A stretch of 64,000 bases of DNA from positions 496,001 to 560,000 of the forward strand of contig CDLV01000019.1 in the NCBI GenBank assembly GCA_001244265.2, given 5' to 3'. Of this stretch, positions 20,896 to 29,113 are shown one piece after another; the first letter of the stretch is position 1, and every line of letters starts with the position of its first letter. Below the pieces are notes generated by a model that worked only from the letters and a program-made list of their open reading frames with translations, was not told the DNA's origin and did not search any database. Source of the stretch: Microbotryum violaceum. Taxonomy: Eukaryota. The position numbers and the translations under genes are program-made.

Positions 20896-23800
20896 TTACC
20901 CAGCCTGGGCATGCAAGCTATACACGACCTCCCTTACGACATGATAAGTCTCTCCCGGCGTGCCCTCGATCATCACCCTGCCCCTCCCATTCTTCTTAAC
21001 GACCACTCTCCCACCACTCAAGTTCAACTCGCCCTTATACCCAAACGACTGAGGCGGTGCAGGTCCACAGAGAAGGATGCCTTGACCTGCAAACTCGGAC
21101 GGGATTCCCCGTGCTGCGAGCCGTTCTTTGAGCAGCGTAAGACGTAGGTCACCGATGAAGAGTGAGGGACGGAGAGGGGGAAGCGTCTTGATCAGGCTTG
21201 TAGAGGGCGTAATCGAATCGGCATCCATCTTATCGTCTTGCTCCCCCTTCTCCTTCTCCTTCTCCTCATCCCCGACGCCCTGTTCGACCTTGATTTCCTC
21301 TTCCGTCACCTCCGCCTCGGCCTCCGCGTTCCCTTCAATCCTCAACTGTCCCGCGCCCTCCAACACCCCTACCTTTTCCAGAACAGGTAAATCCGACTCG
21401 GGATCGAACCGCACCACACCCGACACATAAGTCACATCATAACTCTCAACTCTGGACAACCTCAACGAAGCCATGATACTATCCCCCAAACGGATGGAGA
21501 AGTTCTTGGTTTCGTGGCCGACGACGATGGATTCGTTCAGGGAAGGGGTGAATATCTCTTCAGAGTAGGCGTTGACGGCTTGGCAGTGCGCGGCGAGGTC
21601 GTTGATCGACGCTTGGGAACCGTTGACGATGACCTATCCAAAGTTGGAAAACGTAATGAGCCACCAGCTCAAACACAGCACGCTTCCTACTGGATCACTC
21701 ACCAATTTCCTCGGGTTCATCTGCGGCAAGATGGTCTTCAAAGCCCTCCCATCGCTCGCGCCCTCGAAATCAACCACGAAAATCGAGCATACGATCCGTA
21801 CCTGCACCTCGTCGACAACATACTTGTGCGGTTTCTCCACCTCCTTCTCCTTGACCTTCTCCTCCTCCATCTTGATCTTCTTATTCGCGCCCGTTCCACC
21901 AACACCCAAAGCAGCCGCAGCTTGGCCCAACAGCTTCGCCGCATTCGAGTTCCCGACGGCCAATCCCATCGTCATGGGATCCTCATCGATCCCCCTCTTC
22001 AACCACCCCTCGATATCAATCGCCTCACCATAAGCATCGACCCTCCTTTTTCTCTCCACAACAGGGAACATGCGATACCGATTCAATCCGTCCATAACCC
22101 TCTTGACTCCCGCCTCCCCCTTGACGTAAATATCGAACGTCGCCGCTCGACCACTGAGGTTCGATTCGTCCAAGAATTCGTCCCATGCACCTAGACCTCC
22201 CGTAAAGCCACCCGTTCTTCTTCGTGGTGTAGGAACGACAACGCCCTCTTCTTTAATCGCTTCTTCGGCGCCTTCAACATCCGAATCAAGGTCCGAATCG
22301 GAATCCGAATTGTCACCTTGGGTATGCAACATCCGGCGAGATCGATCGAGAGCGGCTTGGTGACGCGCTTCACGTTCTTCAATCTCGCGTTCGGCAGCGA
22401 GATAACGTTCGAGTTCTTCGCCTTCGAGGTAAACTTTGCGTTTCATCTGTGGTGAGATGATTTTTTTAATGGGTTTCCAGTCATTAGTTTCGACCGGAGT
22501 GACTGAAACTATGATAAAGGCTCACTTTGAGGTCCAGAGTGCTGTCCATCTTGACCGCCCGACCGACTTTACCCTCACCCCACTTTTCCCCCTCGGTCTG
22601 TGCCTCATCCCAAAGACCAAACAGCCACCTCGTCAAACTGCCTTCGTCACTCGTCTGAGTCAACAAGACGACGTTTCCAGGTACCTGGGCAAATTCGACA
22701 AAGAGCTTGCGCGAAAACCCGTGCGAGAGTGAGAGGGGTGTGACGAGGATCGTCTTGGGCACTTCGGGAGGGATGTCAGCGTTGAGGGCTTCGATGGAAG
22801 GGTAAATCCGAACGTTACTGCGGGAGGAGAAAGAAAAGAGACTCGGTCAATCATGAGCTGCTCTTGTAACCGATTCTCGCAGATGACATGTAAGGGGGGG
22901 GGGGGACCTTACGGGAACTTGAGAATCTTCTCATCCCCCACCTGTCTCCCGACCTGACCTCCCATCCACTCCGTCAAACTCCTCGTAAAAACAAACACAT
23001 CCTTCGCCGTTCTCGAAACAACACACAAAGGGAACTGCCTCCCTAAACTCTCAAACGACCAATGTGTTTCCAAAAGTACGAGCAGTTCGAGAATGCGTGC
23101 CGAGGCATCGACGGGTAGAAGGACCGAATGATTGTTGCGCATGGTGGTGGTGACGCAATCTGTGCAAGTGATACGGGCAAAGTAAGCCTCGAATGAGTCG
23201 GCTCTTTTTTCGTTTCAGCCTACCCAAAGACCCGTGGTAACGCACCCAAGAAGGTTTTTTCCTTGTCCATACGTTTGACATTGACCATTAAACTCCTTTC
23301 GGCTCCAACGACAACGACACCCATCCTTCTCATGGCTTCATCGATCCTTGCTCCGTTCAGCAGAGCTGAACTATCGAGGTGATGCTCTTTGACATGGTTG
23401 AAGATAGGCGCGTAGAGGAACGACGAGGCTGAGCTTGCTGGTGACAGCGAGGAAGAGAGCGAAGGTCGGATCGTAAAGAGGGAACCTCCGAGGGTGTGAC
23501 CTGATCGGTGGGCGACTAAGGTGTACCCCTTCAATGGGCCTGCACATTCGTAAAAGCCTCTCATCAGTACCTATGCCCATATCCCAACGAACAAGACTTG
23601 GACTGGCCTGATAGATGAACAGGCTGTGTCCACCTGACCGCATTGACCGTCAAGAACGCCTGCCGGACCTCGTGAACGGACAACTTCCACACCTGCTGCA
23701 TCAAATCTTCCTCCTTCACTTCCGTCCCGTCGATCGTGACTTGTTCTCCTCCTTCAACTTGAGCGACCTGATCGTCCACCTCCATCTTCGTTCGTTTCCC

Positions 23801-24217
23801 CTTGCCCTTGGGTTTGATCGTCGCCTTGTCCAAAGCCGCCTCCCCCTCTCTAAAGCCCTCATTCTCCTCCTCCTCACTCCTCGCGACGACCCACTCCTCC
23901 ACTGCATACCGTCCCATTTCCCTCGTAGGTAAGGTCGCGTAAACGGGACATCGTAGACCACACTTTGCTTTCAACCAAGGCAGTAAACCCAAACGGGTCA
24001 AGAGCGGATGGGTAACGATGACGAGGTTCAACGAAGGTGCGAGGTCTCTCAACCTCTTGAGATAAGTCCCATTCGGATCGGTTGAAGTCGAATTGGAAGA
24101 GGAACGGAATTCGGCAGTCGTGTCGTGAATGCCACAATCGAGGAGGATCTTGGCCGAGTCGATCGTCAAGAGGTAGCACGGCGGCGATTCCGATAAAGAG
24201 GTGAGCGTGATGCTCAT
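20896..24217 (-). CDS. CPSF2: Cleavage and polyadenylation specificity factor subunit 2 (CPSF100/Cft2)
   Basis: CYLLTIDSAKILLDCG, PVYATLPTREMGR, SGHTLGGS, VLLPVDASARILELL, VVDFEGASDGRALKTILPQMNPRKL, LFIGDLRLTLLKERL...SEFAGQGILLC. Confidence 0.93.
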
Positions 24218-24838
24218 CACGATCACTTGTTCTTGTTTGGGTTGCTTGTTACGCTGGATTTGGCGTGGCTCCTATGTGGTGGGTACGACAGATGAGTCAC
24301 ACCACCGCGTCGCACGAACTGGTGGTGTCGTACGTAAGAAGAGGCCGGCGATGCCGAGTGATCCTCCTGCAGCTTGGATCTATGACCAACTGATTCCCTC
24401 GTCACAAGCGCTTCTGACCGTCAAGCTGTGATGTCGGCAGTCGAAAGCTGAGCGTAGGTGGCGAATATCTTCCCCCAAGTTTGATCGACTTTGACGTGGG
24501 GTCAAGTCGAAAGGCAACCCGGCACTCGCGTCCGACCCAAGTCAGTTCAAAAATCAATTTCGGCCGAGATAAACTTTCTGATTTTGAAAAAAAAAAAAAG
24601 TACGGTCTCGGGAGGGAGGAAGCACAAAACAGGAGACAAAAGAACAGGCAACAAAACGCTTTTTTTTGAGGGGGGGGGCGAGGGAACCGGTCAGAAACAC
24701 TTGGGGGAAAGAGTAGACAGGAACGAGTCGATAGAGCGGTGAAGAACAAAGAGAGGGGTCGAACACGAAAAAAAGGGGGGGAAATTCAAAACCTCACCAC
24801 TCTTTAGCCTAGCACACGCTCATCTCAAAGAAACCTGT

Positions 24839-27220
24839 TCACCAACCCGAATCGTCCCTAGCGGCAGGAGGAGGCGGGCTCCTTCCACCCACATCCGCAC
24901 CCGCCGATCGACGAGGTTCGGGGGACCTATCCCTACGAGCGGGGGAGACCGAACGACGACGGTAATCGTCGCGACGATCATCGCGCTCGTCACGACGGGG
25001 AGGCGGTCCACGGTCATCGCGGTCGTCACGTCGGTCCGAACCGCGAGACGAGTAACCGCGGTCTCCGCCGCGATCGTCGTAGCGGGGTCGGGATTCGTAA
25101 CCTCCTCCTCCTCCTCCACCACGAGATCCTCCAGCACCGGCGGCCTAGGAAAGGGGTGGAACGCAATGCCGTCAGTTTCACGATATTGACTGAGCCGTGT
25201 TACGTGAGCGGAGAACGTACAGCATCCTCAACGGTGACGGTCGCGCCGTTGAACTGGGTGTTGTTCAAAATGCGAATCGCCTCATCGGCATCGCTGCGCG
25301 AACCGTATTCGATGTATCTAAGTGAGTGAAAGGTGGATCAAAACGTCAGACACGAGTCAGCACACGCGCCAATATTAGGAAAAAGAAACGGGGATGCGTT
25401 GCCTCCTCATCCAACTGACCCGGTTCCGGTATTGCGATCGACGTCAGAGTAACCAACGTTGCCGGCCGTGCGACCAAAGTCCTTGAGGTCCTACGAGGGG
25501 GTGGAAAAGTCGGAACCGAAACGGGTGGCGAGAGGTGGAGCCAAGGGAAGAGTGGGGATACGACGAAGTTGAATTAGTTCTCCACAAAACGTCCCTCGTC
25601 CACGGCCACTTTTGGAACGAGTTTTTGGTGAGGAAGTGAAGGTCCCGAGACATGGAGGAACGCAACGACCCGGACCCGCAACGGAGAAGACCACCCGGCG
25701 AGCTGAACCACGTAGCGAGCGAGCGTGATCGGGTAAAAGGACGGTTCGCGACAGGTAAAAATGAAACCTCCGCGAGAGGGATACGCCGTCTTTCGGGTTC
25801 AAGAAAGCGTCACGCGAGAACCATCGACGATTCGCCAAACCAGCCCTTTGAGCCAACGACTGCGACCCGCCAAAGCACGAAACGAAACGAAGCGGGACGG
25901 AACGGAACGACCCGGACCCGGAAACGAAAGGCCAGATTCACGCAGTTAATGCGCCACGCCACGTCAGGGACCGTCCACTACAACGCGTCCTACGACCGTT
26001 CGGAGAAAGCGCCAGGCTCACGCCAACGAGTTGCCTCGAGCCGAAACGAAAACGCGAACCAAGCCCGCCACACGTCAGAACCGGACCGGACCGAATGAAA
26101 GAGCGAACGGGCGCCATGCCAAACGTCCCAAAGGTAACGAAACGAAGCGAGCCCCGAGAATCGCGAAGGTCTCGTCCAGGCGCCAAGGCTATTCGGGCCA
26201 GCTCACTGTGAAAGAAGATTAGAAAGGACGGCGAGTTTTGCGGCTCTTGGAAGATGGGAGCCGCGCGCGAATCCGATGCCAACCACGCCGAAAGCACGTC
26301 AAACGATGATGATAGAAAGCTCTTTACTAACCTGCCACGAGACGCCGTCCGGAATGCCATTGACGACCAACCTGAATCCACGAGGGGGAGGCGGTCCACG
26401 GGGAGGGGGACGATCGTAGCCGCCACCACCACTTGCACCACCGCCGTATCCACCACGATCGTATCCACGATCGTATCCACGATCGCCACCACCGCCGTAT
26501 CCACCACGGTCACCACCGCCGTATCCACCTCGATCACCTCGATCACCGTAGCCGCCCGGTGCACCACGAGGGGGCCCAAAGCTGTGCGCACCACCACGCG
26601 GGCGGAAGGGGGGAGGGTGTCAGGAAAGGGTGGGCGCGCGATAGTTTTTGGTCGGCAACGCGGAGTCGCGGGCCACTGAGTGGCACTCACCGATCTTCAC
26701 GGGGACGAGGCGGTTTAGCGAACTCGACCGAGATGCGATCGCCCATGAAATCACGACCGTGCAGATCAGCTACAGCCGCTTCGGCGTCCTGAGGTGAGGG
26801 GAAACATAATGTCAGAGTTGAGAGTCTGATGGGCCGAATCAAGCCCGAGGTGTATGGTGTATGTGCGTGTGTGGTGTAAGAACGTACCTTGAGGTCTTCG
26901 TACTCGAGAAAGGCAAAGCCGCCCATGACGCGGATGTCGACGATGCGGCCGAGCGGACTGAAGTAGGCCTCTGTGATCGCAGCGAGGACATCAGTACAGA
27001 CTTGAAAGTGTGCACTGTTCGATGGACGGGTGCTGAAGGGCATGGAGGAGTAGACGGGGGTGATCACCACCCTCAAGCAGAAGCGCCGCCTGATCCCGCA
27101 CCATGGCTGCTCCCACGCCCCATCAACCACCCCCAGCACACCACACAGGAGGTACCTACCCAGATCCTGACGTTGCACATCAGGGCCGAGATGGCCAATG
27201 TAGAGACGACGACCAGACAT
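24839..27220 (-). CDS. SR-family splicing factor with two RRMs (Srp2/SRSF4-5-6-like)
   Basis: RRM1 (RLYIGHL...GFAFLEYEDLKDAEAAV...ISVEFAK), RGG-rich linker, pseudo-RRM with SWQ/DLKD motif, RD/RS-rich tail; 841-nt intron 25491-26331. Confidence 0.9.
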
Positions 27221-27809
27221 TGCTTTTAGAGAGTACGATGGAGTAGTCTTGGGGGAGGGAAAGAGAGAGGCAGAAGAGGGTTGTGTTGCGCGCGCGGGAC
27301 GCCAGATTACGCCAGATTATTGTCTCTTTTTCTATTCCTTTTCTTAGGCGGGAAGCCGTTTGCGCGCTTTTGTTTTTTGGACCCGCTCGCTCAGAGCTGT
27401 CAAAAGAGTCGAGTCATGTTCTCCCAACGCTCACCGTCGCGCAGGGTACGGTTGCGGCAGAAGAGCAAGACCTTTTCAGAACAAAAGACACAAACAGAGA
27501 AGGAACATCAACTCGGGGGGAAAAAAGGAAAAAAAAGAAAAAAGAAAAAGTAGAAGAGGAAAAAGTTCTAGGGCCGAGGGACGGGGGGGGGGTGTGTGTG
27601 TGATAAGGAAAGCGTTCGTTGCGGGGATCGGCAATGGTCGCCGTGCACGATTGACGCAAAGCGTAGAGCTAGAGTCTAGACACGAAACAAGGAAGAACAT
27701 TAAAGTGCTACAGTAGACCATAACCCCTCAAGATGCTTCCTCCTCTATCCTTTGAGCCCCACGCTCCTCCCCGTCCCGAGCCGGGTTGGGTTTGAAAGCA
27801 CAAGTCGGT

Positions 27810-29113
27810 TTAGCACTAGAGGAAGCACAAAGCAGATCAGTCACCGCACACACACACTACGCCGATAACGTTATGGCTCCTTTGTGAACTTACCGCGGGG
27901 TGGTCACTCGATCGGGTGTTGAGGATCAAAGCGACGATCAGGCCGTACAAGCCCAACACCTCGGCAAAAATGAGGATCAGGATCATGCCGACGAACACGC
28001 GCGACTAGAAAACAAAAAAACGCCCACACCGTCAGTGGACTTCGATAATGACCTCGCCTTTTGTGCATCGAGTGACTGACTTGTTGAGCCACACCTCGCA
28101 CACCGGCATCACCGACGATCCCGATCGCGAAACCGGCGGAGAGACCGGCCAAACCGACGGAGAGACCGGCGCCGAGTTGGATGAAACCCGTGTAGAGCGC
28201 CATAGGGGACTTGAGGTCACCCGAAATGAGCACAGAGACGACGAGGCCGTAGATCTGGGTTTGAGCAAGGGGAGATCGACAGTAAGCCAAAGAGGTGAGG
28301 TGCGGAGCAAGCCAGCCATCGTTTCGGCGATCGTGATCCCGAGTCCACCTCGAACCTTTCCCGAGATTCAATACGACGAAGTTGTACTCACGGCAATGAT
28401 ACCGGCCATGACGACGGGGACGATGCACTTCATCATCAGATCGGGTCGGAGCACACCCATCGCAGCGATACCGACGCCGGACTTTGAGGTACCGTACGAT
28501 GCACCGATGCCTGTAGAAAAGGAAAAGGGGGATCCAAGGTCAGTTCTGGAGTTGCTGGCAGCTGGGATGACCGCGCAGTCTGGAAGCGGGTAAGGCACGG
28601 GAAGGACGCACAGGTGAAGACGATTGCGGCGGTGCAGCCCCTGTGAAGGAACCAATCCAATCCGAGCATCGTGCGAAAAAGGGGTGTATAAACCTGGTCA
28701 GCTCAAACTGGCCTCGACAGACCCCCAGATCGGGAGCGATGGCGGTGGAAGGGCGGGCGGAGATGGGTGATGGGTGCATACGCCATACGCCATACGCGCA
28801 CCAAGCGAGGAAGGCTCACATCGCACCGAAAAAGGGGGCATAGATCTGTACACACAGGGCGATGGTCAATTACCAAGACTAGCCTTGGATCGCAGGAACG
28901 TCAACATACGGGGCACGCCTCGGAAAATGCGCTGTAGAGCTCCCAACGTCGGTGAGAAGGTCGGTGGGAAGGTACCCGACGGTGGTGGCGGAACGCGAGC
29001 GAGCGGGGGAGCGTGTTCAGCAATTGGGTGCAGGGTGAGAGCAGCACCGCGTCAGTAGCTAAAGCAGCACGCTACATCATCGAGTGCAACAGCACGCACC
29101 TGACGGTCGACAT
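27810..29113 (-). CDS. VMA3: V-ATPase 16 kDa proteolipid subunit c
   Basis: Micro-exons give [30 protein letters not shown]; then [37 protein letters not shown]...[19 protein letters not shown]. Confidence 0.92.

Follow-up and report, generated by a model that had tools for sequence, protein, structure and literature searches.

The closest described counterparts of the gene treated here are SR protein genes of other fungi and of animals. In the part of Lareau and Brenner (2015; PMC4379411) that deals with fungal SR genes, ESTs of Neurospora crassa, of Aspergillus niger and of Postia placenta are reported to retain the equivalent of intron 5 of human SRSF5, and the retained form of intron 3 of N. 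crassa srp2 is stabilised when the Upf1 ortholog is missing; NMD-coupled retention of the SRSF5/srp2 intron is, going by that part of the paper, already known in fungi. A sequence-only reading of the DNA analysed here had named a precedent in animals and ascomycetes, which the same sections bear out, except that a basidiomycete, P. placenta, is already part of it. In animals, SRSF5 intron 5 is associated with a poison cassette exon (Lareau et al. 2007, as cited in PMC4379411), and adjacent intron retention has been seen in animal SRSF5 too, according to the passages of PMC4379411 on this gene.

The gene in question lies on the minus strand of the window, by which the whole 64-kb stretch of DNA analysed is meant. 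A scripted model, to which six RNA joints correspond, gives it a coding span of 24839..27220 in seven exons (27220-27160, 26970-26888, 26788-26691, 26581-26332, 25490-25420, 25317-25221 and 25144-24839) and a predicted product of 321 amino acids, composed of a first RRM, a Gly-rich linker, a pseudo-RRM with the heptapeptide SWQDLKD, and an RD/RS-rich tail encoded in exon 7. The heptapeptide is assembled across the exon 4/5 junction and is also present in the near-identical annotated ortholog P0123; its occurrence in the second (pseudo-)RRM is what we take to be the signature of the SRSF4/5/6-Srp2 subfamily of SR proteins. The whole-protein domain scan rests on the ortholog P0123, in which two RRM_1 stretches were found (E 6.3e-27), and on single exons of the window, whose translations match RRM_1 in exons 1-3 (E 9.6e-8) and in exon 6 (E 0.0047). 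A search with the Rhodotorula ortholog P0003 brought up, among other proteins, relatives bearing the names “arginine/serine-rich splicing factor 4/5/6”, “Pre-mRNA-splicing factor srp2” and vertebrate SRSF4/5/6; the closest solved structures are those of SRSF1, Npl3 and SRSF6, with SRSF1 as the top PDB match, and the assignment to the SRSF4/5/6 rather than the SRSF1 type is one by names and scores only. With its RRM_1 matches, its heptapeptide and its subfamily-named relatives, the gene is, as had been proposed and as far as its sequence tells, a two-RRM SR protein gene of the SRSF4/5/6-Srp2 type. The fungal type of SR protein is described, in the relevant part of PMC9767378, as having an RD/E-rich C-terminal domain.

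Between SWQ and DLKD the coding sequence is split by intron 4 (25491..26331, minus strand), a phase-0 intron of 841 nt delimited by sequence and RNA contigs: exon 4 ends in TCG TGG CAG at 26332, the intron opens with GTTAGT at 26331 and closes with CGTAG at 25491, and exon 5 begins with GAC CTC AAG GAC from 25490. As the remaining five introns of the gene measure 189, 99, 109, 102 and 76 nt, intron 4 is 4-11 times longer than the others; this exceptional length, pointed out before from the letters alone, was recovered both by rereading the minus strand and by rebuilding the gene with a script. The donor (26326..26331) carries a T at +3, a position occupied by A, A, G, C and A in the gene's other donors. 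A motif scan found a single CTRAY for the productive acceptor, the branch-point-like CTAAT at 25573..25577 (minus strand), whose branch A (25574) precedes the AG at 25491 by 83 nt, with no AG between them; the earlier estimate of a branch site about 80 nt upstream was accurate. The AG-free zone of 89 nt before this acceptor was considered as a special feature and discarded, because the A-poor intron contains longer ones (136, 118 and 94 nt).

Both the productive and the retained form of the transcript are present in contigs of sequencing runs; the RNA nature of three of these runs (X1, X6 and X8) is deduced from joints across introns, no run being recorded as RNA. The contigs attest presence only, each carrying one depth figure, so that a retained share is not measurable from them, and they do not tell nuclear precursors from mature RNA. 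X1, which is 100% identical to the window, contains all six productive junctions of the gene, that is, the joints across all five short introns and 25489>26331 (depth 30). A 793-nt contig of the same run (25463-26255) consists of exon 5 and 765 nt of intron 4 at a depth of 21.4, next to 44.3 for exons 5-7 and 30 for exons 1-4 with the junction; the X1 contigs do not cover 26256-26330, and a hole of this kind proves nothing. In the congeneric X6, one contig has exons 7, 6 and 5 joined and runs onward to 25608, and a second contains 25909-26151, then 202 unlike letters, then 26326-26430 (exon 4). In X8, which derives from another relative, exons 7, 6 and 5 are likewise joined on a contig that continues to 25549 and then through 48 unlike letters; past 26326, the contig with exon 4 goes on for 46 unlike letters. 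Taken together, intron 4 is attached to exon 5 in three runs and to exon 4 in two, both from relatives, with the short introns gone; X6 and X8 each have a single contig from which introns 5 and 6 have been removed and in which intron 4 is kept, and a molecule that keeps the intron all the way from exon 4 to exon 5 is seen in the relatives only (in X6 and, more weakly, in X8). One short contig of X6, at 25687-25755, is roughly double its neighbours in depth. A further run, X5, looked like low-cover DNA and was set aside as RNA evidence because its contigs run without interruption over intron 3 and over the border between exon 4 and intron 4.

Upon retention, the first in-frame stop is the TGA at 26299..26301 (minus strand); translation would read SWQ-VSKELSIIIV-stop, which is 10 codons of intron with two exon junctions downstream. 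An annotated protein of a close relative, P0001 (170 amino acids), ends in the same read-through tail, the peptide SWQVSKELSIIIV. Intron 4 is the reason for truncated or padded public models in close relatives, P0001 stopping inside it and P0027 carrying an invented insert. The inserted segment of P0027 has a weak tblastn echo at 26153-26058 (E 0.063), which is a lead only.

These observations are probably best explained by a presumably single SRSF4/5/6-Srp2-type SR gene of a Microbotryum-like basidiomycete that limits its own expression through retention of intron 4. Lying inside the pseudo-RRM, the intron would be the fungal counterpart of the one that makes SRSF5/srp2 transcripts unproductive, and would be kept long and with weak signals, namely the T at +3 of the donor and the 83 nt between branch point and acceptor; owing to this combination, it may persist in a sizeable share of the transcripts that are otherwise spliced in full. 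Since translation would terminate shortly after SWQ and upstream of two exon junctions, the retained RNA could not yield the full protein and would be expected either to be degraded by NMD or to be kept in the nucleus, with a lower protein output as the consequence. We infer its sensitivity to NMD, as well as a feedback by the gene's own protein, mediated by elements of the intron; judging by the behaviour of other SR genes, the SR protein itself may set the retained share, acting negatively on its own pre-mRNA.

Within Basidiomycota the intron is conserved in position. The metagenome search gave 80 loci, 72 with an uninterrupted WQ[DE][LVIM]KD and 8, the informative ones, without; no retention frequency follows from the 80 because the search pattern itself demands the uninterrupted WQDLKD found in the 72. 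In all eight informative basidiomycete loci a GT..AG intron sits exactly at WQ|D, and in-frame stops are present in 7 of 7 orthologous introns examined. Five transcript-like contigs carry the WQ|D intron as the sole interruption of the reading frame, between complete coding halves: one is Puccinia-like (L040; retained intron of 722 nt) and four are Agaricomycete-like (L044, L072, L073 and L077; 164-203 nt). For the Polyporales-like L044, L072 and L073, the simplest reading is that retention of the WQ|DLKD intron is what was reported for Postia. A Rhodotorula-like genomic locus (L075) has introns of 102, 89, 76, 430, 79 and 71 nt, the one of 430 nt being that at SWQ|DLKD; no real alignment between this intron and that of the window was obtained. 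In Pucciniomycotina, then, this regulated intron has reached a length of 430-841 nt, other introns of the same genes measuring about 70-190 nt.

The sequence-only reading had placed the switch at an alternative 3' splice site, 26206, which would be joined to the donor at 26331 with removal of 126 nt, leaving a TGA directly after SWQ and a transcript subject to NMD. As a sequence the site is as described: CTAATCTTCTTTCACAG (26206..26222, minus strand), picked up by the acceptor scan, has its branch A at 26219 and its AG at 26207-26206, 126 nt into the intron; CTAAT and AG are 13 nt apart, the interval is 91% pyrimidines, a donor-like GTGAGC (26206-26201) overlaps the site and an in-frame TGA (26203..26205) follows directly. 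It is the most canonical acceptor-like element of the intron and, when such elements are defined as CTRAY with 8-35 nt to the first AG, YAG and at least 70% pyrimidines, one of 34 in both strands of the 64 kb (128 kb), real acceptors counted in. The chance expectation is at most 0.22 per 841 nt; the site thus resembles an acceptor more closely than a trivial match would, yet is not strongly improbable, and its immediate TGA adds little because plain retention by itself already brings a stop after 10 codons. A joint 26331>26206 is absent from the contigs of four runs, although rare variants are lost from contigs and NMD would lower the isoform's steady-state level, so that the site may still see minor use; the 793-nt X1 contig passes unbroken across 26206. 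X6 has the unlike letters where 26152-26325 would be, without an alignment at 85% or more, while 25909-26151 aligns. Under the same definition an internal site is found in neither of two other Pucciniomycotina introns (L040 and L075) and in one of four Agaricomycete introns, there at a different place, which does not speak for conservation of the site in relatives. A search for longer proteins with exon 4 returned only P0001 and P0027, and no protein ending at SWQ. That this acceptor constitutes the switch is unlikely. Of the proposal that the switch known from other SR genes also operates in this basidiomycete, one part holds, as unproductive RNA from the SWQ|DLKD intron exists; the poison form observed is retention, and the acceptor at 26206 is unproven.

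Intron 4 has further features of its own. UGGC occurs in it 16 times (nine times as UGGCG) versus 3.3 in dinucleotide-preserving shuffles, none of 200 of which reaches 16; 14 of the motifs form a cluster at 25837..26281 (minus strand), and the two outside it start at 25608 and 25543. This is a new detail: the intron holds the densest UGGC cluster of the 64-kb window, its density being the highest among all 841-nt windows on both strands, and the motif is over-represented in five of six orthologous introns tested. In the literature searched, a cis-element of the feedback is reported for no fungal SR gene, and the cluster is a testable candidate for one. Two repeats are also present on the minus strand, a direct repeat of 25 nt (25657..25681 and 25899..25923; 23/25 identical) and an exact one of 14 nt, CGCTTCGTTTCGTT in RNA sense (25881..25894 and 26136-26149); inverted repeats of 10-15 nt are, by estimate, within chance. 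GGA, the motif of the pseudo-RRM, shows no enrichment there (10 occurrences for 10.0 expected), and GGAC is enriched mildly (7 vs 3.3; 6 of 200 shuffles reach 7). Rfam gave two weak matches elsewhere, in intron 1/exon 2, far below the gathering scores.

These features can be combined into a more elaborate and rather doubtful reading, in which the intron is a built regulatory module of a kind shared across Basidiomycota, with the cluster as a binding platform and 26206 as a composite decoy, together producing a reserve of detained-intron transcripts. The SR protein, or some other factor, would attach to the approximately 16 UGGC(G) motifs, the near-perfect acceptor overlapping GTGAGC could engage the spliceosome unproductively, and otherwise finished transcripts would be held, then spliced or destroyed on demand. 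If so, what counts about the acceptor at 26206 would be its action as a decoy, not its use as a junction.

Retention might also reflect no regulation at all. A long intron with a weak donor (T at +3) and a distant branch point may be spliced slowly, and the intron-bearing contigs would then be ordinary pre-mRNA or noise; contigs are blind to the difference between nuclear precursor and mature RNA, and the pre-mRNA of a slow intron would look alike. We consider this quite unlikely, since position, outlier length and selective retention are found again in Microbotryum relatives, in a Rhodotorula-like yeast, in a rust-like fungus and in Agaricomycetes, since the X6 and X8 contigs lose introns 5 and 6 while keeping intron 4, and since the intron's content, with its UGGC cluster and repeats, is non-random; moreover, the retained form in N. 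crassa responds to loss of Upf1, as stated in the srp2 section of PMC4379411. Transcription from an internal start near 26255 would instead produce a 5'-truncated RNA with an intron leader and exons 5-7, to which the intron-bearing contig of the window's species would be traced. The end of the X1 intron contig at 26255, the uncovered 26256-26330 and the unbroken entry of the exon 1-4 contig into the spliced junction suit this explanation, and the depths of 44.3, 30 and 21.4 would fit two transcript populations, but holes and contig depths prove nothing; X6 links exon 4 to the intron down to 25909, exon 4 of X8 continues into non-exon letters, and in the five contigs of other basidiomycetes the entire intron lies between coding halves that are complete, all of which makes an internal start very unlikely. 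An RNA gene such as a snoRNA, a mobile element or an antisense gene residing in the intron could explain why it is long, and its length and the X6 contig of doubled depth could be cited for this. Such a guest is extremely improbable: Rfam yields nothing inside 25491-26331 even with E up to 10, the 64 kb contain no other copy of the intron besides its own 25-nt internal repeat, and its stop-to-stop frames are short or of low complexity.

Self-limitation by retention of intron 4 can be set beside several known systems. In mammalian SR and CLK genes there are detained introns, reportedly described by Boutz and co-workers in 2015, which resemble it in that abundant transcripts of splicing regulators, spliced in other respects, keep one long intron; there, nuclear detention or delayed splicing is the outcome, whereas the fungal precedent points to NMD. 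Plant SR-subfamily genes are said (Kalyna and co-workers, in 2006) to contain a long alternatively spliced intron, which resembles the present one in being long, conserved and alternatively spliced in two-RRM genes with PTC isoforms, but which belongs to another kingdom and makes use of alternative 3' and 5' sites as opposed to the plain retention seen here. The plant case is regarded as of independent origin in the pertinent passage of PMC4379411. Animal SRSF5 shares the gene family, the premature stop, what would be the same NMD outcome and, according to the SRSF5 passages of PMC4379411, what would be the same intron; unlike there, no cassette exon or internal joint occurs in any contig here.

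Nearest to the locus is the retention of the fungal srp2 intron, as portrayed in the fungal sections of PMC4379411, with which it shares the gene family, an intron in the second RRM, splicing of the other introns, the in-frame stop and, presumably, a single family member in the genome. From these sections and our own reasoning, the SWQ|DLKD position would equal intron 3 of N. crassa srp2 and intron 5 of human SRSF5; the literature searched contains no statement on where the latter lies relative to SWQDLKD. Dependence on NMD is known for N. crassa srp2, again from these sections, and would apply here by extension. The present case differs in concerning Microbotryomycetes and in the size of the intron, 841 nt (722 and 430 nt in other Pucciniomycotina) as compared to 164-203 nt in the Agaricomycete contigs. 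It thereby adds a Microbotryomycete to the one well-documented unproductive splicing event common to animals and fungi, which the environmental contigs extend further to a rust-like fungus, to a Rhodotorula-like yeast and to several Agaricomycetes.

The SR-protein gene lies on the minus strand at 27220–24839, and its rebuilt model comprises seven exons (27220–27160, 26970–26888, 26788–26691, 26581–26332, 25490–25420, 25317–25221 and 25144–24839). The deduced product of 321 aa has one RRM at the N terminus, joined by a Gly-rich linker to a second RRM that carries SWQDLKD, and a tail rich in Arg, Asp and Ser. That the gene encodes an SR protein, as the sequence-only reading had it, is borne out by matches to Pfam RRM_1 (E 9.6e-8 for the direct translation of exons 1–3, E 0.0047 for exon 6) and by names found among relatives with a Rhodotorula ortholog as query, that is, “Pre-mRNA-splicing factor srp2”, “arginine/serine-rich splicing factor 4/5/6” and vertebrate SRSF4/5/6. 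The closest public proteins stem from Microbotryum species, which places the window in that genus or very close to it; a near-identical protein (P0123, 311 aa, source name Microbotryum saponariae) contains two RRM_1 stretches (E 6.3e-27), and the most similar solved structures are SRSF1, Npl3 and SRSF6. Introns 1 (26971–27159, 189 nt) and 2 (26789–26887, 99 nt) have lengths divisible by three and contain no in-frame stop, so that exons 1–3 can be read as a single open frame of 176 aa; retention of these introns would add residues inside RRM1, not truncate it. The 5′ leader (27500–27600, minus strand) carries long pyrimidine runs (C9, T/C tracts); sequencing reads seemed cut there, and repeats were skipped at 27512–27600. 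Upstream lies a minus-strand gene (27837–28539) with an ATP-synt_C proteolipid segment (E 6.2e-6), presumably the V-ATPase c subunit. At the head of the next minus-strand gene downstream (23564–24271) is a metallo-beta-lactamase domain (Lactamase_B_6, E 3e-16), and the gene resembles one for a CPSF/Cft2-type cleavage factor subunit.

Intron 4 extends from a GTTAGT donor at 26331 to the AG at 25492–25491, is in phase 0 and splits SWQ from DLKD. With 841 nt it is indeed far longer than the remaining five introns (189, 99, 109, 102 and 76 nt). Its donor, with T at +3, is a weaker one, and the sole CTRAY of the productive acceptor is found 83 nt upstream (branch A at 25574), close to the roughly 80 nt first estimated. 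Retention of the intron reads SWQ-VSKELSIIIV-stop, which places the stop 10 codons past SWQ. Two public gene models of close relatives look wrong on account of this long intron: P0001 (170 aa) terminates inside it after the read-through peptide SWQVSKELSIIIV, and in P0027 (409 aa) 46 inserted residues separate SWQ from LDLKD, the last exon is translated in a different frame, and intron 1 is also treated as coding.

Assembled contigs of four sequencing runs were placed on the window; none of the runs is recorded as RNA, and three (X1, X6 and X8) were judged to be spliced RNA from their contig joints, while the contigs of X5 behave as low-cover DNA. X1, which shows 0 differences from the window, has joints over each of the five short introns and over 25489>26331, which confirms both the productive junction and the gene model. 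The same run yielded a 793-nt contig (25463–26255, no difference) in which 28 nt of the start of exon 5 are continuous with 765 nt of intron 4. X1 depths are 30 for exons 1–4 with the spliced junction, 21.4 for the intron contig and 44.3 for exons 5–7, values which, as contig depths, cannot rank parts of the gene. This intron contig goes no further than 26255, and the lack of X1 cover over 26256–26330, the opening 75 nt of the intron, proves nothing either way; a GC-rich palindrome lies at 26254–26277, and coverage dropout, a clipped graph tip and a real RNA end are candidate causes of the contig end. In X6, a relative with most pieces 90–95% alike, one contig joins exons 7, 6 and 5 and then continues into intron 4 to 25608, and a second links 25909–26151, via 202 unlike letters in place of 26152–26325, to 26326–26430 in exon 4. 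X8, from a second relative at low depth, likewise has intron sequence attached at both borders of intron 4.

The sequence-only reading had proposed a poison acceptor, CTAATCTTCTTTCACAG (minus strand, AG ending at 26206), with a TGA in frame directly after it (26205–26203), used through a 26331>26206 junction. All its coordinates are correct, and it was also right on gene, intron and unproductive outcome; the mechanism seen, however, is retention, and the proposed junction found no support. No joint at 26206, nor any other internal joint in intron 4, is present in the contigs of the four runs, in which rare variants are lost, and the X1 intron contig crosses 26206 unbroken. By a strict definition, the 64 kb contains 34 acceptor-like sites on its two strands, true acceptors counted, so that no more than 0.22 would be expected in 841 nt; the 26206 site thus resembles an acceptor more than chance would often give, though not overwhelmingly. 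A donor-like GTGAGC overlaps its AG, and the TGA that follows is nothing special, because retention alone already reaches a stop. Nor is the site conserved in the relatives examined: the stretch is replaced in X6, and by the same definition internal acceptor-like sites are absent from the orthologous introns of loci L040 and L075, the only one among such introns being in L073, near the real acceptor. The 26206 acceptor may be a minor second route or a decoy.

An alignment of 14 orthologs from basidiomycetes, used to search metagenome contigs, left 80 loci, in 72 of which WQ[DE][LVIM]KD is uninterrupted, a count without frequency meaning as one of the two search patterns demands it. In each of the remaining eight, a GT..AG intron falls precisely at WQ|D; in five, transcript-like contigs, it is the sole interruption of the coding sequence, and the other three are genomic contigs from a Rhodotorula-like yeast. 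The transcript-like introns measure 722 nt in L040 (best match a Puccinia triticina-named protein, 94.5% and 88% identity over two halves) and 174, 164, 203 and 202 nt in L044, L072, L073 and L077, whose best matches are Agaricomycete proteins; these last four share a GTAYGGA donor, CTGG shortly before the branch point, and TGGCC words between. In L040 (420–1141), CTAAC lies just 3 nt before the AG and the next CTRAY 99 nt upstream with no AG between; the branch point is therefore distant, as in the window. The spliced model of the yeast locus L075 (introns of 102, 89, 76, 430, 79 and 71 nt) repeats the seven-exon plan and the outlier intron; no alignment of its intron with intron 4 was obtained. 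In-frame stops are present in all seven orthologous introns examined. Judged from these sequences, the intron at SWQ|DLKD is kept long across Pucciniomycotina.

Intron 4 is A-poor (12.7% A). Ranked without bias against dinucleotide-preserving shuffles, its most over-represented 5-mers are TGGCG (9 vs 1.3) and TTGGC (8 vs 1.3); TGGC occurs 16 times (3.3 expected), a number reached by 0 of 200 shuffles. Among all 841-nt windows from the two strands of the 64 kb (2528), TGGC averages 3.19 and only 11 windows reach 16; those listed as the top six all overlap the intron 4 locus. A post hoc test found TGGC over-represented as well in the introns of L040, L044, L072, L073 and L077 (7, 2, 10, 1 and 3 of 200 shuffles reaching the count) and not in that of L075 (106 of 200). 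GGA, the pseudo-RRM motif, is not enriched in intron 4. The intron further contains two copies of a 25-nt repeat that lie 242 nt apart and agree at 23/25 positions, together with a 14-nt repeat that is exact; the UGGC cluster and the repeats are candidate regulatory elements.

Intron 4 combines a weaker donor with a distant branch point, and the RNA contigs show that a share of otherwise spliced transcripts retains it. Such transcripts, whose reading frame stops 10 codons past SWQ, should be substrates of NMD, given the Neurospora crassa precedent, and the retained share should, as in other SR genes, respond to the level of the SR protein itself.

According to Lareau & Brenner (2015, PMC4379411), the counterpart of intron 5 in human SRSF5 undergoes alternative splicing or is retained in every animal examined, ESTs from N. 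crassa, Aspergillus niger and a basidiomycete, Postia placenta, keep it with in-frame stops, and intron-3-retained srp2 mRNA of N. crassa is strongly stabilized in a strain without the Upf1 ortholog. No statement placing SRSF5 intron 5 relative to SWQDLKD was found in the literature searched; the two are tentatively linked by the layout in seven exons, in which coding exons 4 and 5 flank the regulated intron (exon 1 of human SRSF5 is non-coding), and by the Polyporales-like contigs described above (L044, L072 and L073), which retain precisely this intron. The phenomenon is already published for fungi, a basidiomycete included; the parts worth following are the conserved intron expansion and the UGGC cluster. 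As in N. crassa, A. niger and P. placenta, an intron of an SR gene is retained here with an in-frame stop.
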